Origin: Actinomycetota bacterium
GTDB lineage: Bacteria > Actinomycetota > CALGFH01 > JBBAAN01
Reading direction: 5' to 3'
DNA length: 64,000 nt
Assembly (NCBI GenBank): GCA_041658225.1
Contig: JBBAAN010000003.1
Span: 18,969 to 82,968, forward strand
Below the pieces are notes generated by a model. The model saw nothing but the letters and a program-made list of their open reading frames with translations, was not told where the DNA came from and searched no databases. How positions within the stretch are numbered: the first letter of the stretch is position 1; every line of letters starts with the position of its first letter. The position numbers and the translations under genes were made by a program. Shown in pieces: positions 40,589-64,000 of this stretch.

Positions 40589-41353
40589 GTGAACCCGCCC
40601 GGGCCATCCGCCGGAACGCGCCCCAAGGTCATCGTGGTGATGCCCGCATACAACGCCGCCAAGACGCTTCAGCGCACTCACGCAGAAATCCCGCCGGACG
40701 TGGTGGACGAGGTAATCCTCGTTGACGACGGCAGCAGCGACGAGACCGCGGAAGTCGCACGGAAGCTGCGGTTGCACGTGATTCGCCACCCCCACAACGT
40801 GGGCTACGGAGGCAACCAGCGTACGTGCTACATGGAGGCGCTTCGCCGCGGGGCGGACGTGGTGGTGATGCTTCACCCCGACGGGCAGTACGACCCTTCG
40901 GTCCTTGGGGATCTCGTAGCTCCCATCGCGGACGGGCAGGCCGACTTCGTGATCGGCTCTCGGATGAAGATCAAGGGGGGCGCTCGTCAGGGCGGCATGC
41001 CCCGGTACAAGTTCCTGGCCAACAAGTTCCTCACTTTCGTGGAGAACTTGGTTCTGGGCACCAGACTCTCCGAGTTCCACAGTGGCTACCGGGCTTTCAG
41101 TCGCCGTCTGCTCGAGACGGTGCCTTTCCTTCGCAACTCCAACGGCTTCGTGTTCGACCAGCAGATAGTCGCCCAGGCGGTGGCGTTCGGCTTCCGCATT
41201 CACGAGGTGCCGATCCGGACCCGCTACTTCCCTGAGGCTTCCTCAGCGAGCTTCGGCCAGAGCATGGTCTACGGGCTGGGGACTATCTGGACGATGTGGC
41301 GCTATCTGCTGCACCGGCTACGGCTCTGGCGCTCACCCCTGTTCTCGCCCTGA
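40589..41353 (+). CDS. GT2 glycosyltransferase, polyprenol-phosphate mannose/glucose synthase-like (DPM1/Ppm1-type)
   Basis: VIVVMPAYNAAKTL...VILVDDGSSDETAEV...DGQ motifs; GTG start in the track. Confidence 0.85.
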   Translation: MNPPGPSAGTRPKVIVVMPAYNAAKTLQRTHAEIPPDVVDEVILVDDGSSDETAEVARKLRLHVIRHPHNVGYGGNQRTCYMEALRRGADVVVMLHPDGQYDPSVLGDLVAPIADGQADFVIGSRMKIKGGARQGGMPRYKFLANKFLTFVENLVLGTRLSEFHSGYRAFSRRLLETVPFLRNSNGFVFDQQIVAQAVAFGFRIHEVPIRTRYFPEASSASFGQSMVYGLGTIWTMWRYLLHRLRLWRSPLFSP

Positions 41354-41447
41354 TCCGCACGCCCGCGGCTTGACCGGCTTCCGGCCCTGCCGCCCCTTGC
41401 CGCCCCCGCCGCAACGCACACGCGGCCGGTTATCCATCGCCGCGAGG

Positions 41448-42602
41448 CTACACGGCAGACGACGTGGCGTATTCCTGCGGAGAGCCAACCGCCGGGCTCT
41501 TCTCGCTTGCCAGAGCCAGAGGCAAGAGAACCAGGAGCGGCGCGAGTATCCGCCAGAGGTCCTTGGGGTATAGAAGCGCCCACCAGTCCAGCAGAGTGAA
41601 AAGCGCGGCGAAAGCCAGGAACACCGTGCCCGCAAGGCTCGGGTGGCGCAACGCCCGCACCACCCCAAGCGCACTCAAGGCAAGCAGCGCGGCAAGCAAG
41701 GGAATCTGGCCGAAGGCCAACTGCATCTGGTCCGGAGAGCCGAAGGCGTGGTCGGCGGCCATCCGCAACGTGCGCAAGATCCCAACGAATGGAGGGGCGA
41801 GACTGAAGCCTCCCTGCAACGCGGTTCCCGGAATGCGAGTCCGCAGGTACTGACTCCACACGGCGGGAACGAAGAAGGGCAGCAGGTAGGGTAGCAAGCG
41901 GTGCATCGGCCAGGCATTCCGGCGCTGCCATAGGTGATAGACCAGCAGCGCCAGGGCAACCAACACGAAGATCTCCTTGGTGAGCGAGGCCCCCGCCAGC
42001 CACAGCGCCGATGCCACGGGTCGCCCGCGCCTGTAGGCCAAGAGCCCCCAAACGCAAAACGCCATCGCCAGTGCCTCGCTGGTGTCCAGCGCGACCGCCG
42101 CTATGAGACCTGGAGACAACCCATAGACAACGGCCCACCGCGCGCGGCGGCCCTCTGCTTCCAGGAACCGCGCGGCGCCATAGGTGCCCATGAGCACGGC
42201 CAGCAAGTTGACGACAATCATCGTCCAGGCGATCAGGCCCGGACGTCCGAGAGCCAGAATCCAGGACAGAAACGGATAGCCCGCATGCTGGTAGCGGTAG
42301 GCCGGGAGTTCAAGAATCCCGGGGACTTGTCCCCTGGCAAGCGGGTCGTGGGCCACAGCGTAGAAGAACGCCCCATCGTAGTGGGCCGGGGCATCGACCT
42401 CGACGGTGCCTTCTCTCCAGGTAGTTGCCAGCCTTGTCAGCGCCTCTCCCCGTCCCAGGCGAACCAGGGCAGTCGGCTCCCACCGCGCACGGGAAAGAAT
42501 CCCCCCCCACGACGCAGAGGTTCACGACGAGCGCCAGCGCGGCGGCAACCAACGCCGCCAAGACCGACGACCGAGACTTCGCCTGGGATCTCATTGCCGG
42601 CA
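41448..42602 (-). pseudogene. Polytopic membrane protein (GT-C/DUF2029-like glycosyltransferase candidate) split by a frameshift at an 8-G homopolymer (42500-42507)
   Basis: N-terminal piece MPAMRSQAKSRSSVLAALVAAALALVVNLCVVGG (42310..42735 ORF frame, RBS GAAGG). The frame is lost exactly at the G8 run. The downstream frame is closed by a TGA 5 codons before the run, then reads ...ILSRARWEPTALVRLGRGEALTRLATTWREGTVEVDAPAHYDGAFFYAVAHDPLARGQ... continuously into ORF 41448..42356. A 9-G run would give one roughly 385-aa protein. Confidence 0.5.
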
Positions 42603-42658
42603 TGTTACCTTCGCATGCGGTGGAAAGAGGGCTGCGCGGCCCCCCGGGGCCGGACTCG

Positions 42659-44089
42659 TCAGAAGGAGCTTCTGAAGCCTCCGACCTGGTTCCAGTGGTC
42701 CCCGGCGATGCGGTACTCCGCGACATAGTTCGCACCCACCCGAACGCCAGGGCCGAAGCGCAGCGGACACCACGTCTGCGGCGCGATGTTCAAGGACTGA
42801 AAAGCTGACCGGAAGGTCTTGTAGCCGAGGTCCGAGCCGGCTGCCAGGAGCGCGGCGTGCATGACCTCGCCCACCCCCCAGCCGACCAGGCCGATGTCGT
42901 CGGGTTGATCGTTGGGGTCGGTGTAGGTCTCCCGGTAGGCGGCCTTGTAGGTGTTGGCTGCGGGGTTGGACAGCGCAACCCAGGCGGAGAACGCCCTTGC
43001 GCCCTTCAGGGCTCCGTTCGCGTTGCCTACTTGGGCGACCGTGTTGAAGCCCCAAGAGATGGAGTTGCCGAACCACACCGGGTCGTAGGAGACCGCGTGG
43101 CTTTGCTGGGCGAGCTTGATGAGCGGGGTGGGCGCACCGTAGTACCAGACCACCTGGGCGTCGGCCTTCTCTAGATTGAGCACCGTCTGGGAGAAATCGT
43201 TGTCGTCCCCCTTTACCCTCTCCTCAGCCACGAGATGGATGCCCTTCTCGGCCAGCCGCGCCTTGAGGGCCTCGACCGCCGGGATCAGATCGGGCACGTC
43301 TTCGCGGACGTAGGCGTACTTCTTGCCCGCCAGGTCGCCGTTGGTCCAGTAGTCGGCGATGAGCTTCCCCTGCATCCGGTGGTCGACGCTGATAGTGAAG
43401 CTGTTGGTCTGGTCGGGCGCGGCGGCGGAGACCGAGGCCTCCACCAGGACATGCGGCATCCCCTTGTCGTTGAGGAACTTGGCGATGGGTCCCTCCACGC
43501 CCGCACGGTCGAAGACTACGAAGGTGAAGGCACCTTGGTTGATGCATTCGCGGGCCGCGGACAAACCCGTGTCCACCTTGGAGTCGGTGTTCCCGACCAT
43601 GAGGGCGACATTGCGCCCATGGATCGTCCGGCCCTTGTCCTTGAGGTACTTCCAGTACAGGTTGGCGCCCTTGTCCCAACTGGTCGGGATCGGGGCAGCA
43701 CCGGTCAAGGCCACCAGGTAGCAGAGCTTGATCTCAGTGTCGCTCACCCCCGGGTGGGGGCCCGGATCGATCTTGGCGCTGCCGGTCCCGGAGCCTCCGA
43801 AGCCGCTGGGGCGAGGGGTCGAGACCCGGCCGGAAGCCTCCGAGGACCCCCCACCGGTGCCGGGTGAGAGAGTCCCCTCGGCGCCAAAGGAAACCCCTTC
43901 CCCGACCCAGGTGGTTTCCCCCGGGGTCCCCTCGGCAGCGGCAACTCGTTGCTCACCTTGGTCGGCTCGCAGTTCCTGTTCGGCCGGCCACCGCGCGCCG
44001 CAAGCCGGTCCCAGCAACGTCAGTGCCGCCGCCGCGCTTGCCCACCGAAGGGGAAAACCGATCCCGCGACTCCGCGCCCCACCGCGCAC
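42659..44089 (-). CDS. ABC-transporter substrate-binding protein (Leu/Ile/Val-binding, Peripla_BP_6-like) with signal peptide and Gly/Ser-rich linker
   Basis: 476 aa; the N-terminal hydrophobic segment has a Cys; the body resembles LivJ-type solute-binding proteins. Confidence 0.75.
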   Translation of the reverse strand: MRGGARSRGIGFPLRWASAAAALTLLGPACGARWPAEQELRADQGEQRVAAAEGTPGETTWVGEGVSFGAEGTLSPGTGGGSSEASGRVSTPRPSGFGGSGTGSAKIDPGPHPGVSDTEIKLCYLVALTGAAPIPTSWDKGANLYWKYLKDKGRTIHGRNVALMVGNTDSKVDTGLSAARECINQGAFTFVVFDRAGVEGPIAKFLNDKGMPHVLVEASVSAAAPDQTNSFTISVDHRMQGKLIADYWTNGDLAGKKYAYVREDVPDLIPAVEALKARLAEKGIHLVAEERVKGDDNDFSQTVLNLEKADAQVVWYYGAPTPLIKLAQQSHAVSYDPVWFGNSISWGFNTVAQVGNANGALKGARAFSAWVALSNPAANTYKAAYRETYTDPNDQPDDIGLVGWGVGEVMHAALLAAGSDLGYKTFRSAFQSLNIAPQTWCPLRFGPGVRVGANYVAEYRIAGDHWNQVGGFRSSF

Positions 44090-44328
44090 CTCTTACCCCC
44101 CTCGCCCCGAGACAGCCCCAACGAACCCGGCCCGCTCGCCACCCGCCCCAGGTCGCTATCCGCGAACGCCGGCAATCAGCAGGTGTCGCTGCGCGACGCA
44201 CGTAAGCTAGCACGTGGCTTTGCCCCCGTACATGAAGCGCCGCCCGGGGTCACCATGGCCTATCCGATGACACCGAAACCATCGCCGCTTGACAACAACC
44301 ACACCCGGGATGTCTAGTCCCGAACACC

Positions 44329-45513
44329 ATGTGCGACACGATGATTGTTGTCTCTCCCGAGCGGGTGCTCTTCGCCAAGAACTCGGATCGAGATGCCAAC
44401 GAGGCGCAGTTGCTCGACTGGCAGCCTCGGGGCACACACGCGCCGGGAGCGACGCTGCGGTGTACCTGGATCGAGATCCCGCAGGTCCCGGAGACCAACG
44501 CGGTACTACTCAGCCGACCCTTCTGGATGTGGGGGGCCGAGATGGGCGCGAACGAGCACGGCGTGGTCATCGGCAACGAGGCCGTCTTCACCAACCAGCC
44601 GTATACCAAGACGGGTCTCACCGGGATGGATTTGCTTCGTCTCGCGCTCGAGCGCGCGGCTACGGCCAGCGCCGCCGTCGAGACGATCACCGACCTGCTC
44701 GCCCGGTTCGGGCAGGGTGGCGGGTGCGGGTTCGAACACCCTCGCTTCACCTACCACAACAGCTTCCTCATCGCGGACCCCCGAGAGGCGTACGTGCTGG
44801 AGACCGCGGGAAGGCTGTGGGCGGTCGAGCGAGTCACGCAGGGGGCCAGAAGCATCTCCAACGGCCTGACGATCCCCGGCTTTGCCGAACAGCACTCCGA
44901 TTTCCTCAAGACAAAAGTCTCGGCCTGCAGGGCCAGACAGGCGCTCACCCAGCGCCGTGCCGAGGTGGCCAAGAGCGCCGGCGATCTGATGGCGATACTG
45001 CGTGACCACGGTGATGGAGGACCGCGCTACTCGTGGGTCAACGGAGCCCTGTCGGCTCCGTGCGTACACGCCGGAGGAATCGCCACCGGGTCGCAGTCGG
45101 TGGCTTCCTGGGTGGCCGATCTCACCCCAGCCGGCGTCCGTCACTGGGTGACCGGCACCTCAGCCCCGTGCACCGGCCTGTTCAAACCCGTGGAGGTTGG
45201 CCGCCCCCTGGACCTTGGCCCCGAGCCCACCGGCGTGGCCGATCCGGCGTCACTGTGGTGGCGGCACGAGCGACTGCACCGCCGGGCCCTGCGTGACCCG
45301 GAACGTCTGCTCCCGCTGTTCACCCCCGACCGCGACGCGATAGAACGGCGCTGGCTCGCCGATCCGCCGGAACCCCCGGAAGCCTTTCGCGTAGCCGACG
45401 GGTTGCTCGCCGAGTGGACGGACCGTTTGACACTCGTCCCCGATCGCCGCCCCTCCTACGTCCGCCGCTACTGGAAGGCCAGGAACCGCTCGGCGGGGAT
45501 GATTCTCCTCTGA
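44329..45513 (+). CDS. C69-family dipeptidase (Ntn-hydrolase; Cys2 nucleophile)
   Basis: MCDTMIV... N-terminus with Cys directly after Met; 394 aa. A possible leaderless promoter lies upstream (TTGACA at 44287; ATG about 12 nt past a TCTAGT -10). Confidence 0.8.
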   Translation: MCDTMIVVSPERVLFAKNSDRDANEAQLLDWQPRGTHAPGATLRCTWIEIPQVPETNAVLLSRPFWMWGAEMGANEHGVVIGNEAVFTNQPYTKTGLTGMDLLRLALERAATASAAVETITDLLARFGQGGGCGFEHPRFTYHNSFLIADPREAYVLETAGRLWAVERVTQGARSISNGLTIPGFAEQHSDFLKTKVSACRARQALTQRRAEVAKSAGDLMAILRDHGDGGPRYSWVNGALSAPCVHAGGIATGSQSVASWVADLTPAGVRHWVTGTSAPCTGLFKPVEVGRPLDLGPEPTGVADPASLWWRHERLHRRALRDPERLLPLFTPDRDAIERRWLADPPEPPEAFRVADGLLAEWTDRLTLVPDRRPSYVRRYWKARNRSAGMILL

Positions 45514-45937
45514 ACCCGGGGCCCGGGTGACGCTCCGCCGAACTGGTGTTCCGGGTGTTCCGGTGCGAGAGCGCCGAGGTCAACGGCGTGCCAGTCCCGC
45601 AGGCCGAGTGCTACGCCGACAAGTACATTGGCCTGCACGTCACGCCGATCAATGGCGGAAAGAGCCACACCCAGACCGGCAATGAGTCCCGGGCCCACTC
45701 GGCCGCGCCCGGCCGCGGCGTTGAAGGCCGACCGCACCAACCCCGCCGCTCAGAACTTCGACAAGAGGGTGAAGGGGCGAGCAGCCGCGACCCGAGCGCA
45801 AGAACTCGGCGATCCGCCCGTTGTACACGGAAAGGTGGTTGCGGGATCCGGGATCCGACGACCAGCGAGAGCCAGGAAGAAGACGGTAAAATGAATGCCA
45901 TCTTCCAGCCAGTTCCTCTTCACGAAAGGAAGACCAG

Positions 45938-46808
45938 CGTGCTCCATTCTCCGGGTATGAGACTCGTGCGCGGCATCACGGCCGTGGTGACCCTCCTCCT
46001 GGTACCGCTGCTTGTCATGACGACCTCTCCGGCCGCGGTTGCGGACCCTGCCTGGGCTCCGGCGGGGGCGGCCACCATCCATCCGGGCGTCCAGACGTTC
46101 AGCCTGCCGCCCGGCGGGAACCAGTGCACGGCCAACTTTATCTTCGCCGACGGCACCGAGGTCTATATCGGTCAAGCCGCTCACTGCTCGGGTACGGGCG
46201 GCAACACGGCCACCGACGGCTGCACCTCGCCGTCCCTGCCGCTCGGCAGCCAGGTGAAGGTCGAGGGTGCGTCCCGGCCGGGCGTGATGGTCTACAACTC
46301 CTGGCTCACCATGCAGGCGCTCAACGAAACGGACTCCGACACTTGCAGGTTCAACGATCTTGCCCTGGTCCGGGTCGATCCCGCCGACGTGGCCCGAGTG
46401 AATCCCTCGATCCCGTTCTGGGGCGGGCCCATGGGGCTGAACTCCGCCGGGACCACGCTCGGCCAGTTCGTCTACAGCTACGGCAACTCCGAGCTGAGGC
46501 TGGGAATCAGCCAGCTCAGCCCTAAGAAGGGAATCAGCCTCGGCGACGCCGGATCCGGATGGAGCCATAACGTCTCGACTGTGACGCCGGGAGTTCCGGG
46601 CGACTCGGGCAGCTGCTTCCTCGACACCGCCGGCAACGCCCTCGGCGTCGTGAGCACGCTCAACGTCGGCCTTCCCGGAGGGGTCTTCAACGGAATCGGC
46701 GACCTGTCCAGGGAGCTCGCCTACATGCACGCCCACACGTCGCTAACCGGCGTGCACCTCGTGCTGGGGGACGTGCCGTTCAACGGCAACCGACTGCCCG
46801 TCGGGTAG
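45938..46808 (+). CDS. Secreted trypsin/chymotrypsin-like serine protease (S1 family)
   Basis: GTG start preceded by an AAAGGAAG RBS; signal peptide MRLVRGITAVVTLLLVPLLVMTTSPAAVA; catalytic GVPGDSGSCFLD; AAHC histidine region. Confidence 0.8.
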
Positions 46809-46947: not shown

Positions 46948-48324
46948 CTATTCTGACCAGCCGGCGCGGCGGGAGACTACGGCAATGAGCCACACGCTGG
47001 CCAGGATCAGGATGGGGTCAACAGCCCCAACCCGGAATCGCACGTAGGGCAGGTGAGCAGCCAACACCACAAGAGGAACGACCGCCGCCGCGAACAGGAA
47101 CTTGCCGCACCGCCTGCCGCGCAAGGCAAGACCGCCGAGCCCACACAGACCCAGCACGACCAACGGGCCCGAAGTGAACCAGAGGACGGTCTTGCTCACG
47201 CCCGGGGTCAACTCCTCCCGGCTCACGCGACTTGGAGCGGGAGAGAGAATGGCAACGGTCTTGAGTACTGCCCGGCGCAGGAATCGTCCCGGAGCCGCTC
47301 GCACGTCCTTCACCATCAGCGACCGAAACCACTCGTCGCGCGCGGCTTCCGGCGCGGAGGCGAAATCGAACCCCTCGGAGGCGGCCCTGGCCTCGATACC
47401 CGGGAAGAACCGCCCATAGGTCGCGTACGTCTCGCTCCCCGGATAGAGGGGGTCGCTGTCGCTGTACACGTGCTTCAGATCCTTCGCGTCGGGCCGGTTC
47501 GCCGCCCATAGGGTGAACCCCTCGCTCGAAGTGACCGGCACGAAGCCCCCCAGCGCATGCGCGTTGCGCAGGGTCCAGGGCGCAAGCACGAGGAACGCCG
47601 CGAGAACCACGCTCCCGGCGATGACCAAGCGACGACCCAGCGGGCGTGCAAGGGCAATGACAACAACGCCCACCACGAAGGCGGCGAGCGCCGCCGGGCG
47701 GGCGAGAATGGCCAGGCCCCAGGCCGCTCCGCACAGCAACCCGGCCGACCACCTGGGGCGGTCCAGCGCAACAAGAGTCGCCCAAACACCGAGGACAAGG
47801 AGGGGGATCGCCAAGTTCTCTGAGAGTGCCTGGCTCGAGAAGTGCACAAAGGGCGGGTAGAGCGCCCCTGCCCACGCCGCCCCCAGCGCGGTCCAGATCG
47901 GTATCCGGAGCCGGCGGGCGGCGCCGAAGAAGAGCAGCGGCAGGGCGCCGCCGAGGAGCGCCTGGACCCCCTGGACACCCCGAATCCCGAGTCCCAGCTC
48001 TCGCAGCCCGGCCAGTAGCAAGACGTAGCCCGGTGGTCGCCAGGCCGTTGGTGTTCCCAGGTAGCTGAAGCCTCGACCGTGAGCGAGGTTGGTGGCGATC
48101 GCCCAGAAGCTGGTCTCATCGTCGGTGAGCCTTGGCCCGATCCCCCAGAAGGCGTAGGCAAGCCGCGCAGCGACGGCCGCGACCACCGCCCCGGCCAGGA
48201 CCACCCGCCAGCTTCTTTCAGTCGAATCGACCAGACGTTTAACGGATGTCCCCAGTCTCCCTGGGTGAGCGCGCCGACCGCCCTGGTCGTGCTCGCCGCG
48301 GCCAAGACCCCAAGCCGGCCTCAA
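46948..48324 (-). CDS. PMT_2/GT39-like (ArnT/protein-O-mannosyltransferase-type, GT-C) polytopic membrane glycosyltransferase
   Basis: About 12 TM helices; periplasmic loop-1 DE-type motif LTDDETSFW. Confidence 0.7.
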   Translation of the reverse strand: MRPAWGLGRGEHDQGGRRAHPGRLGTSVKRLVDSTERSWRVVLAGAVVAAVAARLAYAFWGIGPRLTDDETSFWAIATNLAHGRGFSYLGTPTAWRPPGYVLLLAGLRELGLGIRGVQGVQALLGGALPLLFFGAARRLRIPIWTALGAAWAGALYPPFVHFSSQALSENLAIPLLVLGVWATLVALDRPRWSAGLLCGAAWGLAILARPAALAAFVVGVVVIALARPLGRRLVIAGSVVLAAFLVLAPWTLRNAHALGGFVPVTSSEGFTLWAANRPDAKDLKHVYSDSDPLYPGSETYATYGRFFPGIEARAASEGFDFASAPEAARDEWFRSLMVKDVRAAPGRFLRRAVLKTVAILSPAPSRVSREELTPGVSKTVLWFTSGPLVVLGLCGLGGLALRGRRCGKFLFAAAVVPLVVLAAHLPYVRFRVGAVDPILILASVWLIAVVSRRAGWSE

Positions 48325-48376
48325 GGCTCTTGGCCGGTTGTACTCGACCCCAGACGTGGCAGGCGCCGACCGTGCC

Positions 48377-53383: not shown

Positions 53384-53390
53384 GGCGACA

Positions 53391-55293: not shown

Positions 55294-55313
55294 TGAGGCG
55301 ACTCCCGCGAGAC

Positions 55314-56679
55314 TCATGGCGGATCGCCGGCACAACAGCCGGACTGAGGGCCCGATCCCACGGACGCGACCGCACCCTCCGCCGGTCCGCCTTCCGCAGG
55401 GGCACGCCGGCACTCACGCAGAGCGATGGTGAAGTACCACCACCACGCGATGGCTCCCATCCACATCGTAAGCGCCACGCCCCACGCCGCACCCCGCGCA
55501 CCACCCGTCACGGCTCCGCTGATGCCGCCGACAGCCATCAAGGAGGCAGTGATGAGTCGGGCCTTCAGGCTTTGCCTCGCGGCGGCAAGGGCACGCAACC
55601 CGAACAGGGCCCCCGCCACAGCGCTTGACGCCACCAGGGCCACACCCATGGGAAGGACTACGGCTCTGGCCGTCACCCATGACTCCCCGAGAGCGAGCCT
55701 TCCGATTCGGTCGGGCAGCAGCAGCACTACGCTCGTCCACATCACGACACCGGCAGCGAGTGTCACGGACAGCAGGACCGTCACGGGCCTCAGCCTGGAG
55801 GGGTGGGCTCGGAAAAGCCCTACCGCCTCTGGAATCGCAGCCAGGGCCACTCCCACGAAGAGCACGTTGAGCGGTCCCATCAAGAGCCCGGCTCCCTTAT
55901 AGGCGCCCGCCGCCGAGAGCCCAGCCGCCGCCGCGACCCCGTAGAGGACGAACTCCAAGGCGAAGTTCATTGCCAGGAACTCCCCCAGATAACGAGGGGC
56001 AAGGTCTCGATGAGCGCTCAGCCATCGACCGGCCAGACACGGTCTCGGAATCGTGCCCGCCTGGAGGGCGCCGAGCGCGGCGGCCACAGCGGCGGACCCG
56101 GCCCACGCGAACACGAACCACGACACGGACGCCGCGCGCACCCGCGGGAGCAGCAACAGCGGAGCCAGCATCATCGCCCCTCGCGAGAGGTCGTTGAGGA
56201 ACGCCAGGTGCCCTTTGCGAATGGAGAAGAACGCGTCCCGCCACAGGTCCTGCAGTAGCAGGGCCGGCAGTAGAAGCCCCAGGGGCAAGAGCGCCTGGCG
56301 GAGCGGGCCGTGCATCGCCCACGCGGCCACCAGCACCCCCAGGCCCAGGATCGACCCGACCACCACGCTCGTGCCCGAGGCGGCACGCGCGGCGGCGCGC
56401 CAGGACTCCATGTCCGACCCGCTGTGTCGCACCAAGAGCGGTTCCGCCGCCAGCGCTCGCGAGGAGCCGAGAGCGAGAGTGCACCCGGAGAACGCCAGGC
56501 TGAAGGCGCCAAATTGCGACGGGGACAGTGTGCGAGCCACGAGGACGGCAAGCGCAAAGCTGGTGAGGCTGGAAAGCGACTGGTCGGCGAGTCCCCAACC
56601 GAAGCGTCCCGCGGTGGCCCACCCCCGCTCCGCGGACGGCCGCTCCGCCTGGCTTTCCGCCGCGGAGGGCACGCGCATC
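55314..56679 (-). CDS. Polysaccharide biosynthesis protein / oligosaccharide flippase (Wzx, PST family), 12-14 TM
   Basis: Continuous hydrophobic helices; probable start MRVPSAAE at 56679. Confidence 0.7.
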
Positions 56680-56908
56680 CGCAAACGACCCGGTCGTTCA
56701 GTGACTACGCTCAACGCCGTTCTCCCTTTGCGGCTGTTCATATGTTCAACGGAGCCGGTGCCGATTCCTCCCGGCTCGGCACTGATCTCAAGTCCCCCGC
56801 CGGGCAAGACTCGCCGTCTCGCGGCAGGAGACCCTGCCACCGGGCGAGCAAGCAGGTAGAGACCGGCGGACCCATTCCTCCCTCACCGCGCCTCACCGCG
56901 CCACCATG

Positions 56909-57730
56909 TCAGTCCCCACCCCGAGGCTCGGCTTCGATGACGATTACGCGCCCGAGCCGGCGCAGCGGTCCGCGACGGACCAGTCTGGAGGCGAGCCGGC
57001 CCTTCCAGCCCCGCGACCAGGCAACCGTGGCCCTGCGGCGTATCACGAGCGAAGGCTCGACCAGGCCTTCGAACTCCCGCCACCCGTATTCCCTCAAGTG
57101 GCTCGACGCGGCGAAGTATGCCGACGTGGGCCGCCGCCGGCCGCGCACCCAATCCCGGGCTCGCCAGCACAGAACCTGCAGGTTGTGCCGGTTGGGAGTG
57201 GCGACCACGACATGACCCCCGGCGGCTACCACTCTTGCGAGTTCCCGCACGCCCACTCGATCGTCGGGCAGGTGCTCGACGGTGTCGTCACACACGGCCG
57301 CGTCGAAAGCACCGGAACGAAACGGAAGTGCCTCCAGATCGCCGACGACGCCGCGAAGGGAAACCCCAGCGCGACCTGCGAACGCCCGGGCCAGCCGGAC
57401 GCTGCCGAGTGAGATGTCGAGTGCCACCATGGTGCACCCGGCCACCCGACCGAGTGCCAGGGACACGGCCGGGTTCGGGCCACAGCCTGCGTCCAGGATC
57501 AGCCCCCTCGCCTCGCTCAGCAGGTCGACCACGACCGGAAGGGTCTCCGGGAAAGAGAGCAGAGGCGGCGCCTCCGAGTCGCCCAGCGAGGACTCCAGCG
57601 ATCCGCCCAGTTCCACATACAGGGCCTTTATCGCGGCAGAGTCCCCAGTCGGCAGCACGCGGTCGACGTGAGCGCGGTGCTGGGTCAGGATGTCCTCCAC
57701 GCCCAACCGAGCGTCATCCCGGTCGGCTCC
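56909..57730 (-). CDS. Class I SAM-dependent methyltransferase
   Basis: Motif I ILDAGCGPN; ...VVCDDTVEHLPD...; probable start MGSEHP at 57730. The longer track ORF overlaps the plus-strand MTase remnant. Confidence 0.75.
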   Translation of the reverse strand, partial: GADRDDARLGVEDILTQHRAHVDRVLPTGDSAAIKALYVELGGSLESSLGDSEAPPLLSFPETLPVVVDLLSEARGLILDAGCGPNPAVSLALGRVAGCTMVALDISLGSVRLARAFAGRAGVSLRGVVGDLEALPFRSGAFDAAVCDDTVEHLPDDRVGVRELARVVAAGGHVVVATPNRHNLQVLCWRARDWVRGRRRPTSAYFAASSHLREYGWREFEGLVEPSLVIRRRATVAWSRGWKGRLASRLVRRGPLRRLGRVIVIEAEPRGGD

Positions 57731-57961
57731 TGACGGGTGCTCGCTCCCCATCCTGCCCCTTCCACGGGTACTCACGCGGATCCAGTGGGCCGCCAGCGGC
57801 GCCCTTGGTCCGCCCATGTTCCAGGTTCCAGGCGGATCCTCGAGAGACAAGATCCGGGTCGGCAGCCATTGTAGGGCGCGTAGACTACTCCCCTGTAGTG
57901 CCGGCGAACCGGACGACCGGTGTGAGGCAGGAGGGCTGCCACGCCTCCCAGTGAGGATCCC

Positions 57962-58662
57962 ATGCGCGCGTATTGGGACGAGCGCGCGCGGGTCAACGCC
58001 GTCTGGTACGTGGACACGAGCCTCGATTTCGACCACCCGGACCTGGAACGGTTCTTCGAGACCGGCCGGCGCATCGTCTCCGAGGCGCTGGACCACGCCC
58101 CAATTGCTCCGCCGGGGTCCTCGCTTGCCGTCGAGATCGGATCGGGCCTGGGTCGGGTGTGCCTCGCGCTGACCGAGCGGTTCAGCCGGGTCATTGGGGT
58201 GGACGTGTGACCCGAGATGGTGCGCCGCGCGCGCGCGAGTTCGCGCCGAATCCACGGATATCCTTCGAGGTGGGCGACGGAGCCAGCCTCGCGATGATCC
58301 CCGACGCCTCCGCCGACCTCGTGCTCTCGTTCACCGTGTTCCAGCACATCCCACACGTGTGGGTGACAGAGCGCTACATCGCCGAGGCTGGGCGGGTCCT
58401 GCGACCCGGCGGCATCCTCGTGTTCCAGTGGAACAACTCGCCGGGCGCGGTTCGCTGGGCCTTGCGGCGCGAAGTACTCTCGCTTCTAAGGCGAGCGGGG
58501 TTGGGGTTGGAGCGTTTCGACCGTCACGCCCCTGCGTTCCTCGGCAGCCGCGTGCCGCTGAGCCGGATACGGCGCTCCCTTGAAGGCGCCGGCCTCGCGC
58601 TTCGGGGCACGAGAGGGCTCGACACCCTGTTTGCCTGGGCATGGGCGGAGAGGGTCTCGTGA
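57962..58662 (+). pseudogene. Class I SAM-dependent methyltransferase disrupted between motif I and the rest: an in-frame TGA at 58208 plus a frame change within or near a (GC)5 run at 58226-58236
   Basis: The N-terminal frame MRAYWDE...VEIGSGLGRVCLALTERFSRVIGVDV stops at TGA, then reads PEMVRRARA. The downstream frame reads ...REFAPNPRISFEVGDGASLAMIPDASADLVLSFTVFQHIP.... The expected joined peptide GVDVSPEMVRRAREFAPNPRISF needs TGA to be sense and 2 nt removed from the (GC)n run. Alternatively one base is missing before the TGA. Confidence 0.55.
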
Positions 58663-59645
58663 TCACCGCCCCACGCGTATCGGTCATCGTGCCCGTCCGC
58701 AACCGGCGAGATCTCCTCGGGGCGCTCCTCGAGGCGCTTGCGCGCCAGACGCTGTCGGGCTTCGAGGTCGTCGTCGTGGACGATGGCTCCAACGACGGCT
58801 CGGCCGAAGAGGCGAACGCCTGGGCGGCGCGCGGCCTGACGCTGCGTGTCCTTAGAACCCAGGGCGTCGGCGCGGTAGGCGCGCGCCGACTCGGTGTGGA
58901 GGCCTCACGCGGCGACGTGCTGGCTTTCACCGACAGCGACTGCGTGCCGGAGCCGCGGTGGCTGGCCGAGGGGCTCGCCGCTATCGAGGCCGGGGTGGAC
59001 GTGGTCGAGGGCGCGACCCATCCCGTGCGCGAGATGCGTGCGTTCGAACACGCGGTCCGGGCGGGAGACGACGGCCTCTACAACACCTGCAACGTCTTCT
59101 ATCGCCGGGAAGCCTACGAGGCCGCGGGCGGCTTCGACGGGAACACCGGACGGCGCATGGGTTTCCGGCCGGGATCATTCGGGCGCGGTCTCGGCTTCGG
59201 GGAAGACACCCTGCTCGGCTGGCGCGTGCGCCGCGCCGGCCGAGCCGCATTCGCGCCGCTCGCCATTGTGCGCCACCAGGTCCTGCGATCCTCCCCGCGC
59301 GAGACGATCAACCGAACCTGGATGTGCGGCGGCTTCCCCGCGCTGGTCCGAGAGGTACCCGAACTTCGGGGAGCCCTTCTCAAACACCGGCTTTTCCTCG
59401 GGCGCAGGCGCGTGCCGCTGTACGTGCTGGTGGCCGCGCTGCTGCTGCGCCGGCGCAACGCCGCGCTGATCGCGGCGGCATGGTGGTTTGCTGCTCGCGC
59501 CCGCGATGTATCGCGTACGAACGGTGCCGGGCACGGGATCAAGCGAGGGCGGCTGCTCGATATTCCGGTCGAGCTCGCCCGCGATGTCGTGTCCGCGGCA
59601 GCCCTGCTGGCCGGCAGCGCCAAGACCCGGACACCCGTGCTGTGA
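58641..59645 (+). CDS. GT2 glycosyltransferase
   Basis: VSVIVPVRNRRDLL...VVVVDDGSNDGS...AFTDSDCVPEPRWL. Confidence 0.8.
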   Translation: MGGEGLVITAPRVSVIVPVRNRRDLLGALLEALARQTLSGFEVVVVDDGSNDGSAEEANAWAARGLTLRVLRTQGVGAVGARRLGVEASRGDVLAFTDSDCVPEPRWLAEGLAAIEAGVDVVEGATHPVREMRAFEHAVRAGDDGLYNTCNVFYRREAYEAAGGFDGNTGRRMGFRPGSFGRGLGFGEDTLLGWRVRRAGRAAFAPLAIVRHQVLRSSPRETINRTWMCGGFPALVREVPELRGALLKHRLFLGRRRVPLYVLVAALLLRRRNAALIAAAWWFAARARDVSRTNGAGHGIKRGRLLDIPVELARDVVSAAALLAGSAKTRTPVL

Positions 59646-59727: not shown

Positions 59728-60894
59728 TTGAGGAGCTCCCCGCCGAAAGTCGCCATCCGTGGCGCCGCCCGCTCGGCAGTCCCGGCGGGGCTGATCGCCG
59801 TGATCGCCTGGCCTGGAGTCCCGCTGCCAATGCGACTGGGCGCCGCCGGCGCCCTCTTCGCCTTCTGGGCCGCCGTCTACGCCCGCTACCGCGCCGCCGG
59901 TCGGCGCCAGACCCGGCACGAGTGGGAGCTGCTGCGCAGAACCGACCGGCAGGCCCTCCGGCGCCACTACGACGAACGCGTCCCCACGATGGAGCAGGAG
60001 TTCGAGCAGTGGGGACCCTACTACGCCTACAAACACCAAATGCGCTACAACCTCGTCGCGCGCGCCGTGCGCGACAACCTACCGCCCGGGGGACGCGTCC
60101 TCGACACCGGCTGCGGGGCCGCGCTCGTAGCCGCGCGCATGCTCGACCTTGACGCTGAATACCTCGGCTTGGATTTCGGCGGCCCACACATCCAGTACGC
60201 CGCAAGGAAGTTGCGCGAAGCAGACGGGCGGCTGCGAGTTCGATTCGTGCGCGCCGACGCCGAGCAGATACCCCTCATCGACGCCTGCGTGGACGTTGTC
60301 GTCATGAGCGAGGTCATCGAGCACCTCTTGCGACCCGACCGCGCCGTCTGGGAAGTAGCCAGGGTGCTACGCCCCGGTGGGACCTTCATAATGACCACCA
60401 ACAATGCCTGCGAGGTGCCACTGCGCTCGCCGCTTGCCAACCCTCTCGCGTGGTTCGAGAAGGCTCTCGGCACCGGGCATCCCTCGCTCATCTCGCACCG
60501 CCACTGGGTGTGGCCCGAGCCGGTCGACCGCGAACTGCTCCCGGCGCAGGCGGAGGATGTCTATGTTCCCCACACGCACCACATTCCAGCCGAGACCTGC
60601 GGGATGCTCGCCTCTGCCGGGCTCAAGACTCCGCGCTGGTCGACGTTCGAGTTCCCCCCGCCGCAAAGCGTCACGGCCGCGTTGCTTGCCAAGGCGGGCA
60701 GCGCCGGCCGGCGGCTGGCCGACGCCACCGAGTGGGTGGCCCAGCACGCACCGCTGGTCAACCGCCTGGGTACCCACCTCTTCATGCTCGCGCGCAAGAC
60801 AGGCGCGCCGGTCGCGGCGGACCCCCCGCCCGGCGTGTGGCCGGGTCCGGTTCCCCAGGTGCTCGGGCCCTTCCCCGACGATCTCAACTGGTAG
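59728..60894 (+). CDS. Class I SAM-dependent methyltransferase
   Basis: Motif I VLDTGCGAA; ...VVVMSEVIEHLLRPD... Confidence 0.75.
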   Translation: MRSSPPKVAIRGAARSAVPAGLIAVIAWPGVPLPMRLGAAGALFAFWAAVYARYRAAGRRQTRHEWELLRRTDRQALRRHYDERVPTMEQEFEQWGPYYAYKHQMRYNLVARAVRDNLPPGGRVLDTGCGAALVAARMLDLDAEYLGLDFGGPHIQYAARKLREADGRLRVRFVRADAEQIPLIDACVDVVVMSEVIEHLLRPDRAVWEVARVLRPGGTFIMTTNNACEVPLRSPLANPLAWFEKALGTGHPSLISHRHWVWPEPVDRELLPAQAEDVYVPHTHHIPAETCGMLASAGLKTPRWSTFEFPPPQSVTAALLAKAGSAGRRLADATEWVAQHAPLVNRLGTHLFMLARKTGAPVAADPPPGVWPGPVPQVLGPFPDDLNW

Positions 60895-60927
60895 TCTGGC
60901 CGAACCTGATCCACGTGCGGCCGGGAG

Positions 60928-62694
60928 GTGCGCGAAATGAGGTCTGCGGATGTCATCCGGGTTGGCGTCTCACACGTCGTCGGCGCGTTCGCTACCGGTG
61001 GCGATGATGGCCAGGCGGGCGTTGCCGATGCCGCGACGCAAAGGCTGCTGAGGTGGACGCAGGACACCGGCCGAATCCAAGCGAAGGCGCATCTCGCGTC
61101 CGGATGGTCCGAGAAAGCTAGGGCTGGGATAGCTGTGGCCGGCCCCATGGAAGCCGATGGCCAGCTTGCGGCCCCGAGCATCGTGGTATGGGGGCTGCCT
61201 CTTGGATCCTCCGGCGAGGCCTCGGACGACGAGATCCGAGAGGCCGTGCGAGCCCGAAGAGCCGACGAGCTCGATGGGGTCTTCGCTTTGTTCGCACTGG
61301 ATGCGGAAAGCATGTGCGTGCTTACCAGCACCTGGCCGGTCGGGATTGTCCGCGAAGTGTCGAACGGCCCACTGCGTGCTTGGGCGACGCGAGGCGGGGC
61401 GGCCCACGCGCTGGCCAACTCAAAGACACAGATCGCGGGCGAACGGGTGGCGGAACTCGTGACGCTTGACCATGTGATCGGAGCCGACGAATTGCTGGCC
61501 GGCACTGCGCTGCTCGAGGAGGGCTGCGCCGTCGAAGTCACGAGAAACGGCGTGAGGCGTTCGTCGCCCTCTCGGTCCGCTCTCTACGAGCCGGCTCCCA
61601 GGGCCGATGCTCGGTTATTGCGTGAGGTTGTTGGAGACAGCGCGGAACGACTTGTCGGCATTCGAGGAGCGCGGCTCGGACTCACAGGAGGCCGCGACAC
61701 TCGGCTGATTGTCAGTTGCCTGGCCGAGCGCGGGGTGATGCCCAAGACGTTCACCGTGGGCCACCCGGAGTTTCCGGACATGCGCGGTGCTCGCGCCCTC
61801 GCCGCCAAGTTTGGCTGGCAGCACGACGCGGTCGAACCGGCCGCCTACGATGGGACGCCGCTGGGAACACTGGCCGCGCAGAACCAGTGGATCCACCAGG
61901 CTAGTCAGGCCAAGCAGGCTGGGGCTGCGCTATTTGGCGTTCTGACCCGAGCGGCGCTGTGGACCGACGGACTCGGGCACCCACGCGCCGCTCTCGTGGG
62001 GCACCCCCAATTCCCTTGGGACGACACGGTGTGGGTCACCGGGCACGGAGCCGAGATCGGCCGCGCGTACTACTGGCACGGCCACCGGCCGCCGCTGGAT
62101 CCCGTTCCGGTACTGACCGACCGGTGGCGTTCGATCCTGTCGCCGAGCGCATGGGCGACTCTCCGCGAACGCGTCGCGGCCGAGATTGCCGAGACCCCGG
62201 GAAACGAGCCGGCAACCCGTCTCGATGTGTTCTACGCCCGCAACTGGATACGCAAGTACATCGGTCCCGCCCTCCCGGCCGACCGCAGACTCGCCGCCTA
62301 CTCCGCCATATACCTTTGCCGGCCCGCCATCAGCACGCTGCTCGCGTTACCCCAGGAAGACCGCGCCACCAGCCGGGCCTTTGGCGCCGCCATCTCCATT
62401 TGGAGTCCCGACCTTCACCGGAGCAGAGCTGCGGTAGTCGCGCGCTCGATGCTCGCGCGCGCAAGGCAACGCCTCCGGATTCCCGCACCATCGCCACTCG
62501 CGTCCGCCTGGCCATTGCTCGAAGCACTCCTGCGACACCTCGACCAAACCGGCTACCGTTATCGAGGCGTCTTTGACGACGCCTGGTGGTCGCGCGCTCG
62601 CCGAGATGGTGAGCGAAACCCTCGGCTCCGCCCTCCACTGTGGTGGTTGGTCGCGGCGGAAGCCGCGGCGGCGGCGGTTGAGCTGTCGGACTGA
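60928..62694 (+). CDS. Asparagine-synthetase-B-family amidotransferase-like protein (PP-loop)
   Basis: PP-loop-like LGLTGGRDTRLIV. The N-terminus lacks the Cys2 glutamine-hydrolysing nucleophile. Confidence 0.65.
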   Translation: MREMRSADVIRVGVSHVVGAFATGGDDGQAGVADAATQRLLRWTQDTGRIQAKAHLASGWSEKARAGIAVAGPMEADGQLAAPSIVVWGLPLGSSGEASDDEIREAVRARRADELDGVFALFALDAESMCVLTSTWPVGIVREVSNGPLRAWATRGGAAHALANSKTQIAGERVAELVTLDHVIGADELLAGTALLEEGCAVEVTRNGVRRSSPSRSALYEPAPRADARLLREVVGDSAERLVGIRGARLGLTGGRDTRLIVSCLAERGVMPKTFTVGHPEFPDMRGARALAAKFGWQHDAVEPAAYDGTPLGTLAAQNQWIHQASQAKQAGAALFGVLTRAALWTDGLGHPRAALVGHPQFPWDDTVWVTGHGAEIGRAYYWHGHRPPLDPVPVLTDRWRSILSPSAWATLRERVAAEIAETPGNEPATRLDVFYARNWIRKYIGPALPADRRLAAYSAIYLCRPAISTLLALPQEDRATSRAFGAAISIWSPDLHRSRAAVVARSMLARARQRLRIPAPSPLASAWPLLEALLRHLDQTGYRYRGVFDDAWWSRARRDGERNPRLRPPLWWLVAAEAAAAAVELSD

Positions 62695-62955
62695 CGGCTC
62701 ACTTCACTGCTCGGGCAACCGGTCACAGCCCGAAGGGAGCGCATCACTGACCCAGACGACCTTCCTGTGCAACCGTCTTCTTGGGTTCATGCGGAGAACC
62801 CCAGGATACCGGGTAAGATACCGTGGCCATGCTGGTTCCCCATCTTGGCGCAGCGGGTCGAGCCGTCGGCGTGCTCTGTCTATGACCGCTCCGCTGATCG
62901 CTGAGAGGGGCGAGGCAGCTCCGAGGTCCACTGAAGACCGCCGCGGGATACGCCT

Positions 62956-64000
62956 ATGTCTGATTGCCTGATCACGCCTCATGGCGGGGCCTTGGTCGAT
63001 CTCCTGGCCGACCCCGAGCGTGCGGCCGAGTTCCGTGCGGCCTCCCGGGACATGCCCTCCTGGGACATGACCCCTCGCCATCTCTGCGACCTCGAGCTCC
63101 TGTTGAACGGCGGATTCTCCCCGCTCCGGGGCTTCATGACTCGAGGGGACTACGAGAGCGTCTGCTCTTCGATGCGCCTATTGGACGGGACCTTGTGGCC
63201 GATCCCCATCACTCTCGACGTTCCGGAGGACCTGGCCCGGAACCTCGACGCCGGACGGGGCCTGGCGCTTCGCGACCCCGAGGGGGTCCTGCTCGCCGTG
63301 TTGTGGGTTGAGGAGGTCTGGAAGCCCGACCTCACGCTGGAGGCCCAGACGGTGTTCGGCACCGTCGATGAGGACCACCCCGGTGTGAGCCATCTCCTCC
63401 AGAGCACCCACAGTTGGTACGTGGGAGGCCGCATCGAGGGGATCCACCTGCCGATCCACTACGACTTCCGCTCCTTGCGGCTGACGCCCCGGCAGGTTCG
63501 CGCCGATCTCTCCCAGCGCTCGTGGGAGCGGGTCGTGGCCTTCCAGACGCGCAACCCGATGCACCGCGCTCACTACGAGTTGACGCTCCGGGCGGCTCGG
63601 GACACCGGGGCGAGACTGCTCGTCAACCCCGTGGTCGGCCTCACGAAACCGGGCGACGTGGACCACTACAGCCGCGTGCGCTGCTACCAGGCGGTGCTGC
63701 GCCGCTACCCGCCCGAGACCGCCATGCTCACCCTGCTGCCCCTGGCCATGCGGCTGGCGGGCCCGAGGGAAGCGCTCTGGCACGGCATCATCCGCAAGAA
63801 CTACGGCTGTACGCACTTCATCGTGGGGCGCGACCACGCCGGCCCCGGCGCCGACAGTCGAGGGACGCCCTTCTACGACCCTTACGAGGCGCAGGCCATG
63901 TTCCTGTCGCATCAAGACGAGTTGGGAATCGGCATGGTTCCGTTCAGGGAGATGGCCTACGTCCCCGAGTTGGACTCCTACCTGCCCGAGGACGAGGTCG
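62956..64000 (+). CDS. sat: Sulfate adenylyltransferase (ATP sulfurylase), 3' end truncated by the window edge
   Basis: Manual translation from the ATG at 62956: MSDCLITPHGGALVDLL...QTRNPMHRAHYELT...GRDHAGPG... (QTRN and GRD signature motifs). It is absent from the ORF track because no stop falls inside the window. Confidence 0.9.
   Translation, partial: MSDCLITPHGGALVDLLADPERAAEFRAASRDMPSWDMTPRHLCDLELLLNGGFSPLRGFMTRGDYESVCSSMRLLDGTLWPIPITLDVPEDLARNLDAGRGLALRDPEGVLLAVLWVEEVWKPDLTLEAQTVFGTVDEDHPGVSHLLQSTHSWYVGGRIEGIHLPIHYDFRSLRLTPRQVRADLSQRSWERVVAFQTRNPMHRAHYELTLRAARDTGARLLVNPVVGLTKPGDVDHYSRVRCYQAVLRRYPPETAMLTLLPLAMRLAGPREALWHGIIRKNYGCTHFIVGRDHAGPGADSRGTPFYDPYEAQAMFLSHQDELGIGMVPFREMAYVPELDSYLPEDEV

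Follow-up and report, generated by a model that had tools for sequence, protein, structure and literature searches.

We analysed 64,000 nucleotides (the window) of contig JBBAAN010000003.1, positions 18,969 to 82,968 of the forward strand, from an uncultured Actinomycetota bacterium (GenBank assembly GCA_041658225.1). The right-hand part of the window, together with contig sequence recovered beyond it, probably directs the synthesis of a decorated heteroglycan of the cell surface and has its own sulfation module, made up of a bifunctional ATP sulfurylase/adenosine-5'-phosphosulfate (APS) kinase (Sat/CysC) and a sulfotransferase of the type that uses 3'-phosphoadenosine-5'-phosphosulfate (PAPS). 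The product would be an exopolysaccharide, a wall-linked glycopolymer or a glycoprotein glycan. An initial annotation, made from the letters of the window, had read 40589–64000 as a surface-glycan cluster with methyl, acetyl and possibly sulfate decorations. This core reading is strengthened by the finding of Sat/CysC and a sulfotransferase within the cluster, and by relatives that keep the sulfotransferase inside clusters of glycosyltransferase and methyltransferase genes.

The window (66% G+C, with coding third-position G+C, GC3, near 0.8) is identical to part of a 106,382 bp ENA metagenome contig from an Actinomycetota metagenome-assembled genome (MAG), ERZ27247322:k141_249857, in which window position x is found at 73336 - x; the same proteins are listed at NCBI as 'MAG: Actinomycetota bacterium' under locus tags WDA71_ (014xx to 015xx) and accessions MFA5785647–MFA5785660. 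Genes were called by Pfam and NCBIfam scans of every plausible open reading frame (ORF) in 38436–64000, and the contig beyond base 64000 was recovered to its end by exact-protein look-ups, so that coordinates there are extrapolated. Because glycan genes continue past the window edge, the cluster spans at least 46948–73058 (>26 kb). Every gene type that had been listed initially was recovered by Pfam or NCBIfam at or near its place, but the left boundary of 40589 had to be moved: unrelated genes fill 5.5 kb between the cluster proper, whose left end lies at 46948, and the family 2 glycosyltransferase (GT2) gene at 40589. Between 46948 and the contig end there are at least nine glycosyltransferase (GT) domains. 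Eight minus-strand genes and five plus-strand genes are spaced at -20 to +261 bp, an arrangement that is not due to chance and that fits two divergent operons meeting at 57752–58640, followed by further short operons. Promoter and terminator scans gave no signal above shuffled controls, and no operon boundaries were therefore drawn from them.

Sat/CysC is a 601-aa protein with PUA_2, ATP-sulfurylase and APS_kinase domains, encoded on the plus strand at 62956–64761 (end extrapolated; 12020–13825 in L002). The window holds its first 348 codons, which match the ATP-sulfurylase family PF01747 with E = 4e-72. The protein scores 909.2 bits against NCBIfam NF004040 (cut-off 669; model positions 5–570 of 572), and the TIGR00339 and TIGR00455 domains are both above cut-off. 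The motifs QTRNPMH, HRAH and GRDHAG, the P-loop GLSGSGKS and DGD are intact, as is the whole ORF in both readable assemblies. The initial annotation had seen an ATP sulfurylase at the edge of the window and had held that cysC and a sulfotransferase beyond 64 kb would speak for sulfation of the glycan, and cysD, cysN or cysH for a housekeeping role. In the event, sat proved to be fused to an APS kinase domain and followed, 60 bp downstream, by a sulfotransferase gene and then by genes for a family 4 glycosyltransferase (GT4), a methyltransferase, an acetyltransferase, a GT2-methyltransferase fusion, a second methyltransferase and a GT2, none of them cysD, cysN or cysH. No PAPS reductase or sulfite reductase gene was found next to sat here or in 14 relatives whose neighbours were inspected. 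An assimilatory sat operon was accordingly rejected: APS/PAPS and sulfite reductase genes are not adjacent, the sulfotransferase gene follows, and the genes upstream encode a GT2, a methyltransferase and an AsnB-like enzyme.

The sulfotransferase gene (64822–66081, extrapolated, plus strand; 13886–15145 in L002) encodes 419 aa. Its matches to Sulfotransfer_3 (PF13469, E = 1.7e-31, 110.6 bits against a cut-off of 27) and Sulfotransfer_1 (PF00685, E = 6.7e-10) identify it as a predicted PAPS-dependent enzyme of the Sulfotransfer_1/_3 superfamily. In an alignment of 25 orthologues, the 5'-phosphosulfate-binding motif GARRSGT(N)W, the 3'-phosphate-binding motif RDGRDVxxS and a GKW motif were invariant and His110 was near-invariant; the PAPS-binding motifs align with those of TPST1 and XssE. 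The top NCBIfam match was NoeE (E = 7e-12, a score of 44.7 against an equivalog cut-off of 500). A tblastn search of plasmids recovered the xss cluster of Synechocystis pSYSM, and noeE of pNGR234a from strain NGR234 at 26% identity. The pSYSM sulfotransferase at the xssE position was 27% identical over 304 aa (pairwise E = 2e-23), and the enzyme at the xssA position gave a much weaker match. A C-terminal domain of ~120 aa (residues ~300–419; W343, R346 and G347 invariant) is likewise conserved among orthologues of the sulfotransferase; it follows a variable basic linker, has no Pfam match and is not present in XssE. Sat/CysC, the sulfotransferase, all of the methyltransferases and the AsnB-like enzyme lack hydrophobic segments, which argues that they act in the cytoplasm.

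Metagenomes contained at least 756 homologues of the sulfotransferase, the best of them 54% identical. Full-length orthologues (39–54% identity) were found only in MAGs labelled Acidimicrobiales, Acidimicrobiaceae, Thermoleophilaceae, Solirubrobacterales or 'Actinomycetes', and those in species-representative genomes (39–48% identity) came from the same MAG groups only. When the cluster proteins were compared by tblastn with 12 sulfotransferase-orthologue loci, nine had 2–7 GT-like genes within 10 kb, and L007, L012 and L015 had no GT-like genes beside the sulfotransferase. A recurring module comprises homologues of the GT2 at 58641 (57–60% identity; beside the sulfotransferase in L008 and L010), the methyltransferase at 59728 (55–61%; L008, L010 and L016), the GT4 at 66236 (44–61%) and the methyltransferase at 67625 (46–54%), at times also with the GT2-methyltransferase fusion, a methyltransferase of the 56909 type and an acetyltransferase. 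The membrane glycosyltransferase of the GT-C type at 46948, both flippases, the AsnB-like enzyme and the 40589/41448 gene pair did not recur beside the orthologues, save for one separate Wzx (in L013). By these homology searches, relatives retain a core of sulfotransferase, GT and methyltransferase genes and the rest varies, as is typical of glycan loci. The proposal that the whole cluster is a single functional unit thus holds for the core, which is kept in relatives, but not for the flippases and GT-C, which are not conserved with it.

Among the loci compared, the closest Sat/CysC proteins were those of L004 (74% identity) and L006 (69%), both in clusters with 3–6 sulfotransferases. These two loci (L004, an ENA ERZ1758341 scaffold; L006, JGI 3300036851) also carry GT2, GT4, hexapeptide and methyltransferase genes and three PF00884 genes ('sulfatase'/LtaS/EptA superfamily). 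The gene content hints at polymers that bear far more sulfate or other substituents. A distant homologue of the sulfotransferase, with 26% identity, is present in the cultured Nonomuraea gerenzanensis (L172; NZ_LT559118.1, 1698572–1699555), where it is flanked by GT2- and GT4-like ORFs; this species is a possible experimental entry point.

On the plus strand, the GT2, methyltransferase, AsnB-like, Sat/CysC and sulfotransferase genes follow one another in this order with gaps of 82, 42, 261 and 60 bp. The GT2 (58641–59645; PF00535, E = 1.8e-28) and the 388-aa class I S-adenosylmethionine (SAM) methyltransferase (59728–60894; Methyltransf_11, E = 1.4e-20) are both conserved partners of the sulfotransferase in relatives. 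They are preceded by a disrupted SAM methyltransferase gene (57962–58662, plus strand), whose fragments, called as pieces of 82 and 122 aa, match Methyltransf_11/25 at positions 1–29 and 56–95; three-frame translation revealed an in-frame stop directly behind SAM-binding motif I, with a frameshift farther on. This is either a pseudogene or a sequencing error common to two assemblies of the same reads. Of the three SAM methyltransferases counted initially, those at 56909–57751 and 59728–60894 are intact and this one is broken. Past the sulfotransferase gene, the extrapolated positions are 66236–67612 (minus strand) for the GT4, 67625–68488 (minus) for a methyltransferase, 68716–69474 for a second hexapeptide acetyltransferase, 69467–71083 for the GT2-methyltransferase fusion, 71256–72056 (minus) for a Methyltransf_24/CmcI-like methyltransferase and 72114–73058 (minus) for a GT2 that ends 277 bp from the contig end.

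The AsnB-like protein (60937–62694, plus strand; 585 aa) had been described as an amidotransferase that would add amido groups. Its match to Pfam is below threshold (19.1 bits against a cut-off of 21), phmmer found nothing in the PDB, and a word-indexed homologue search returned a single relative. An exhaustive HMMER search of 1.84 billion cluster representatives recovered 222 relatives, all of ~550–590 aa, and the family profile matched TsnB9 (3.9e-10), beta-lactam synthetase (2.4e-9), AsnS (3e-7) and also CarA in the PDB. The AlphaFold (AF2) model (predicted local distance difference test score, pLDDT, 92.2) matched TsnB9, beta-lactam synthetase, AsnB and CarA in Foldseek with E = 6e-15 to 3e-10. 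In an alignment of 39 members, G252 and D254 of the PP-loop LTGGRDT are invariant, as are G86, T273 and H296; the protein begins MRSADV, and an N-terminal Cys is not conserved, a feature in which the family resembles beta-lactam synthetase and CarA. The model thus has the two-domain AsnB fold and the PP-loop and lacks the nucleophile Cys (residue 2) of glutamine-hydrolysing AsnB. The assignment to the AsnB superfamily stands, but without the glutaminase Cys the amidotransferase function does not: the protein is a predicted ATP-dependent, carboxylate-activating enzyme in the style of beta-lactam synthetase and CarA, rather than a glutamine amidotransferase, and a candidate for amidating or ligating a carboxylate.

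The leftward operon begins with a 280-aa class I SAM methyltransferase gene (56909–57751; Methyltransf_11, E = 5e-17) and runs, on the minus strand throughout, to the GT-C gene at 46948. The second gene, 55314–56807, encodes a divergent 497-aa membrane protein that had no Pfam match even at E = 5. Its AF2 model (pLDDT 89.6) matched MATE, WzxE and MurJ in Foldseek (TM-scores 0.6–0.7, probability 1.0), its homologues carry the JGI name 'O-antigen/teichoic acid export membrane protein', and BLASTP gave a weak colinear match to the Wzx domain of 48377–51343. From the predicted fold, it is a second, Wzx-like flippase of the multidrug/oligosaccharidyl-lipid/polysaccharide (MOP) family. Identity as a Wzy was rejected for this protein since the fold is that of MOP proteins and not Wzy/O-antigen-ligase-like. 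There follow a TuaH-like, GT4-like gene (54098–55294; Glyco_trans_1_4, E = 1.2e-11; TuaH, 4e-11), a gene for a WbbJ/WcaF-like hexapeptide (left-handed beta-helix) O-acetyltransferase (53391–54092; Hexapep, E = 3.9e-10; WbbJ, 6e-17; WcaF family, 2e-16), a GT4 gene (52277–53383; Glycos_transf_1, E = 7e-23; Glyco_transf_4, E = 9e-20) and a GT2 gene (51340–52296; PF00535, E = 2.5e-26) with a 4-bp overlap with the gene upstream.

The next gene, 48377–51343, encodes a 988-aa fusion of a MOP/Wzx-type flippase (residues 16–480; Polysacc_synt_3, E = 2.1e-49) to a GT4 (residues 600–988; Glycos_transf_1, E = 3.2e-29), with NCBIfam matches to an EpsE-like GT4 and a MOP flippase. The linker between the two domains is of low complexity and is encoded by tandem DNA repeats at 49642–49829 (84 bp ×1.9; 21 bp ×2.4). 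Relatives encode the two domains in separate genes, with only the Wzx in L013 and only the GT4 in L081 and L084. The last gene of the operon (46948–48324, called as 46948–48204) encodes a multi-pass PMT_2 (ArnT/PMT-like) GT-C with a DDE motif after the first transmembrane helix (PF13231, E = 1.4e-7, 32.3 bits against a cut-off of 26.1). These assignments bear out several counts made initially: two Wzx flippases, one by Polysacc_synt_3 (E = 2e-49) and the other by predicted MOP fold; three GT2 (40589–41353, 51340–52296 and 58641–59645; PF00535, E = 1.8e-26 to 1.8e-28); and, for a GT4 count left at two or three, three (the C-terminal half of 48377–51343, 52277–53383 and 54098–55294).

We infer the following order of steps, together with an acceptor, a sugar composition and a glycan destination for the sulfate that are likewise conjectural. 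GT2 and GT4 enzymes, soluble or peripheral to the membrane, would act on its cytoplasmic side and assemble an oligosaccharide linked to a polyprenyl-phosphate carrier. The intermediate, still cytoplasmic, would be O-methylated by the five intact SAM methyltransferase domains and O-acetylated by the two hexapeptide acetyltransferases; amidation or ligation of a carboxylate by the AsnB-fold enzyme is a possible further step. Sulfation would be carried out by the 419-aa sulfotransferase with PAPS from the adjacent Sat/CysC. The decorated lipid-linked unit would then cross the membrane via one or both MOP-family flippases, and outside the PMT_2-type GT-C may either add a sugar from a polyprenyl-phosphate-sugar donor or transfer the glycan to its acceptor.

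Several points weigh against this reading. It is a prediction from sequence, and the host is uncultured. The Logan assembly of run SRR8449812 is 100% identical to the ENA contig across 25 kb; both probably derive from the same reads, so neither independently confirms the other. No genes for a priming phosphoglycosyl transferase, Wzy, polysaccharide co-polymerase (PCP)/Wzz, LytR-CpsA-Psr (LCP) ligase or nucleotide-sugar synthesis were found in the stretch between 46948 and the end of the contig, and a complete pathway therefore cannot be reconstructed. Of the components of a Wzx/Wzy-type locus, then, it is the MOP flippase that is present. The Wzy, PCP/Wzz and initiating phosphoglycosyl transferase families had no match in 1–46947 either, and may be encoded elsewhere in the genome. 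Two genes, 57962–58662 and the nearby 41448–42356, are broken. By sequence, the closest solved relatives of the sulfotransferase are the protein-tyrosine sulfotransferases TPST1/2 (E = 1e-15), with mycobacterial 2zq5 also matched; as the nearest structures are tyrosine sulfotransferases, a carbohydrate acceptor is suggested by the gene context and not by the sequence of the enzyme.

The linkage of Sat/CysC to the sulfotransferase is a further point on the same side. Of 80 metagenomic loci fetched for Sat/CysC relatives (52–73% identity), the 44 flanked by 8 kb or more were scored; a sulfotransferase-like gene was present in three and a GT-like gene in two. Conversely, among the sulfotransferase-orthologue loci, Sat/CysC lay within 10 kb only in L004 and L006. 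As the linkage is not general, Sat/CysC may also serve general sulfate activation; its position beside the sulfotransferase is specific to this locus and its closest relatives (L004 and L006). In 14 loci the neighbours of Sat/CysC included TauE/SafE permeases, CysQ-like phosphatases, an SLC13-type transporter, a CpsB phosphatase and one MOP flippase; in L093, L094, L099, L102, L137 and L167, Sat/CysC was often followed by a TauE/SafE permease or CysQ-like inositol-monophosphatase-family gene, or preceded by an SLC13/CitMHS+TrkA_C transporter gene. With these neighbours it looks like a module for sulfate uptake, activation and recycling of 3'-phosphoadenosine-5'-phosphate without reductases. 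The Sat/CysC family overall looks like a general PAPS supplier, and in this organism it may also feed assimilation. In addition, NCBI accessions run consecutively from the AsnB-like protein (MFA5785658) to the sulfotransferase (MFA5785659), with none for the 601-aa product, and the GenBank annotation apparently does not translate Sat/CysC.

We considered whether two or more pathways are juxtaposed here, with the leftward operon (46948–57751) making an unsulfated polymer or protein glycan and the rightward and downstream genes making a separate sulfated, methylated oligosaccharide. There are indeed two flippases, the arms are transcribed divergently from 57752–58640, only right-hand genes (g13, g14, g15, g19, g20 and g22) recur with sulfotransferase orthologues at 44–61% identity, and GT-C and the flippases do not, the one separate Wzx in L013 apart. 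Nevertheless, up to the contig end the right arm has no transporter of its own, and homologues of the left-arm GT2, GT4 and acetyltransferase (33–46%) do occur in the clusters of relatives. Divergent operons with a common control region are, moreover, usual for single glycan loci. We regard such a split as unlikely, though not far-fetched. A sulfated glycolipid or lipo-oligosaccharide, in the manner of mycobacterial sulfolipids, sulfated glycopeptidolipids or Nod factors, would account for the lack of a Wzy polymerase and chain-length regulator among the genes found and for NoeE as the top NCBIfam match of the sulfotransferase. The combination of heavy O-methylation, acetylation and sulfation resembles that of mycobacterial glycopeptidolipids and NGR234 Nod factors. 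The at least nine GT domains and two MOP flippases, however, point to a polyprenol-linked, exported glycan, and neither the 64-kb window nor its extension contains a polyketide synthase, non-ribosomal peptide synthetase, Pap-type acyltransferase or MmpL. A locus for a sulfolipid of the SL-1 or glycopeptidolipid type was rejected on the latter grounds, and a product of the wider glycolipid class seems decidedly improbable.

It is also conceivable that Sat/CysC is housekeeping and that the sulfotransferase modifies something other than a glycan, such as a tyrosine of a secreted peptide or protein (as RaxST and TPST do) or a small metabolite. The rarity of sulfotransferase and GT genes around Sat/CysC relatives, with TauE/SafE, CysQ-like and SLC13-type neighbours instead, the place of TPST1/2 as best PDB matches of the sulfotransferase profile, and the 261-bp gap upstream of sat would all agree with this. 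Yet the sulfotransferase gene directly follows Sat/CysC with GT and methyltransferase genes on both sides, and 9 of 12 orthologue loci place it inside a GT cluster; its homologues include XssE, from a proven sulfated-exopolysaccharide cluster, and the carbohydrate sulfotransferase NoeE; and no candidate peptide substrate, RaxA/B-type export system or nearby assimilatory reductase was seen. We consider a non-glycan acceptor very unlikely. Least credible is decay of the locus with loss of the sulfated product, to which the broken methyltransferase, the frameshift in the detached GT-C at 41448 and the apparent want of an NCBI protein for Sat/CysC could be taken to point; the remaining ORFs are intact with GC3 of coding type, the catalytic motifs of Sat/CysC and the sulfotransferase are complete, and the Sat/CysC ORF is uninterrupted in both assemblies that could be read.

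A surface heteroglycan sulfated by the products of its own cluster finds its closest counterpart in the xss (synechan) cluster of the Synechocystis sp. PCC 6803 megaplasmid pSYSM, whose sulfated product has been shown chemically (Maeda et al., 2021; PMC8205485); sulfated polysaccharides have been described as essentially cyanobacterial among bacteria (PMC8205485). The xss pathway is the only genetically and chemically established bacterial one for a sulfated exopolysaccharide, and the cluster has been moved into a chassis organism (PMC13125312). In both loci sulfotransferases lie among GT2 and GT4 genes and a Wzx flippase, the sulfotransferase described here is homologous to the xssE-position enzyme, the second sulfotransferase of xss, and has the same PAPS-binding motifs, and sulfation in xss is presumed to take place on a cytoplasmic lipid-linked repeat unit, as we propose. 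In contrast, xss has Wzy (xssF) and PCP (xssK) and no PAPS synthase in the cluster, whereas this locus has neither Wzy nor PCP and has its own Sat/CysC; it carries two flippases (one fused to a GT4), the GT-C, five or six methyltransferases and the AsnB-fold enzyme, belongs to a Gram-positive-type Actinomycetota rather than a cyanobacterium, and has a product predicted from its gene content.

Rhizobial NodP/NodQ with NodH and NoeE, and sulfated rhizobial lipopolysaccharide and capsular polysaccharide (KPS), are instances of dedicated PAPS modules in glycoconjugate pathways. There, as is predicted here, a dedicated ATP sulfurylase/APS kinase is encoded with a carbohydrate sulfotransferase, and NoeE sulfates a methylated fucose; NodPQ, however, is of the heterodimeric CysDN type and not the Sat type, and the product is a lipochitooligosaccharide signal and not a surface polymer. 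For the wps-1 cluster of Actinoplanes missouriensis a sulfated polysaccharide has been proposed without chemistry (Applied and Environmental Microbiology, 2026; PMC13390465). It likewise comes from an actinomycete and combines polysaccharide genes with those for sulfotransferases and a methyltransferase, but its Wzx/Wzy/Wzz set is complete, its two sulfotransferases belong to other subfamilies, it also encodes a GH26 and a kinase-like protein, and no PAPS synthase has been reported. Pontiella sulfatireligans F21 makes sulfated exopolymers and has a putative sulfated glycosaminoglycan cluster (PMC7356697). As described, this similar-looking locus unites genes for GT2 and GT4 enzymes with those for a TuaB-type flippase, a methyltransferase, a PF13469 sulfotransferase, the GT-C-type membrane protein YfhO and an undecaprenyl-phosphate glycosyltransferase; it differs in its host (Verrucomicrobiota, Kiritimatiellae), in having GtrA and a transaminase, and in that no PAPS synthase is described within it. 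Surveys of Shark Bay MAGs found PF13469 genes across several phyla (PMC9723792), and our literature search for a sulfotransferase in Acidimicrobiia returned nothing relevant. We conclude that the locus is of a known but rare type, not described before in this lineage, with some unusual architecture: the in-cluster Sat/CysC, the Wzx-GT4 fusion, the many methyltransferases and the distinct sulfotransferase subfamily.

Judging from the orthologous loci that many MAGs of Acidimicrobiia and Thermoleophilia contain, an abundant uncultured Gram-positive group may be able to make sulfated surface glycans; PMC13390465 (2026) raised the possibility of a sulfated polysaccharide for one actinomycete only. 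If this is true, producers would be identified for the sulfated, glycosaminoglycan-like polymers detected in environmental biofilms, new carbohydrate sulfotransferases would be at hand for the microbial production of sulfated polysaccharides, and the organic sulfur cycle would have an extra sink. More tentatively, since we hold it to be somewhat short of an even chance, soil and sediment Acidimicrobiia and Thermoleophilia may commonly be coated with sulfated, heavily O-methylated polyanionic glycans, made by lineage-specific clusters around an undescribed sulfotransferase subfamily (a catalytic domain plus the ~120-aa C-terminal domain), some of these clusters having as many as six sulfotransferases together with a PAPS synthase of their own. 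Sulfated polysaccharides would then be no near-monopoly of cyanobacteria among bacteria, and Gram-positive bacteria would contribute glycosaminoglycan-like polymers to soil and biofilm matrices.

The initial annotation had also paired the GT2 at 40589 with the GT-C proteins at 46948 and, if intact, 41448, and had drawn a parallel with actinobacterial protein O-mannosylation. The GT2 (40589–41353, plus strand; PF00535, E = 1.8e-26), peripheral to the cluster, has no hydrophobic segment and resembles polyprenyl-phosphate-sugar synthases, its best NCBIfam matches being PpgS (6.9e-25) and AglJ (2.2e-24), both far below the equivalog cut-offs. The equally peripheral gene 41448–42356, convergent with it on the minus strand, encodes a GT87-like GT-C membrane protein of the AZOBR_p60025 family ('cell surface glycopolymer formation'); the match to NF046093 (E = 5e-37, 127 bits against a cut-off of 150) covers only model positions 70–229 of 232, that to GT87 is weak, and the gene seems 5'-truncated or frameshifted. 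A plausible N-terminal transmembrane helix (MPAMRSQAKSRSSVLAALVAAALALVVNL...) in another frame just upstream, at ~42.5–42.65 kb, which would extend the gene to 41448–42660, suggests a frameshift, and this GT-C is probably inactive.

The pair resembles mycobacterial PpgS (Rv3631)/GT-C and Ppm1/Pmt, in which a soluble GT2 makes a polyprenyl-phosphate sugar that a GT-C uses outside the membrane. It differs from them in the low scores against the equivalog models, in the truncated or frameshifted state of the adjacent GT-C, and in the distance of the intact GT-C at 46948, which is ~5.6 kb from the GT2 with unrelated genes in between. The GT-C at 46948 falls below the GT39 PMT model PF02366 (16.7 bits against a cut-off of 22.7). 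A GT39 protein O-mannosylation system was therefore rejected, the PMT model being sub-threshold and the proposed partners unlinked; the parallel is one of analogy only, and none of the three proposed partners recurs beside the sulfotransferase orthologues in tblastn of the fetched loci.

The intervening 42659–46808 encodes a Peripla_BP_6 solute-binding protein, a C45/C69-type peptidase homologue and a weak trypsin-like ORF and holds no glycan genes, and 1–38000 is given to unrelated metabolism, regulators and proteases. An Rfam scan of the 21.7-kb extension gave one sub-threshold chance match only. To the left of the GT2, 38436–40241 (plus strand) encodes a 601-aa secreted alpha/beta-hydrolase-like protein whose C-terminus has LPATG, a hydrophobic stretch and an RR tail; this sorting signal fits a sortase-type wall anchor and is consistent with a Gram-positive-type envelope.

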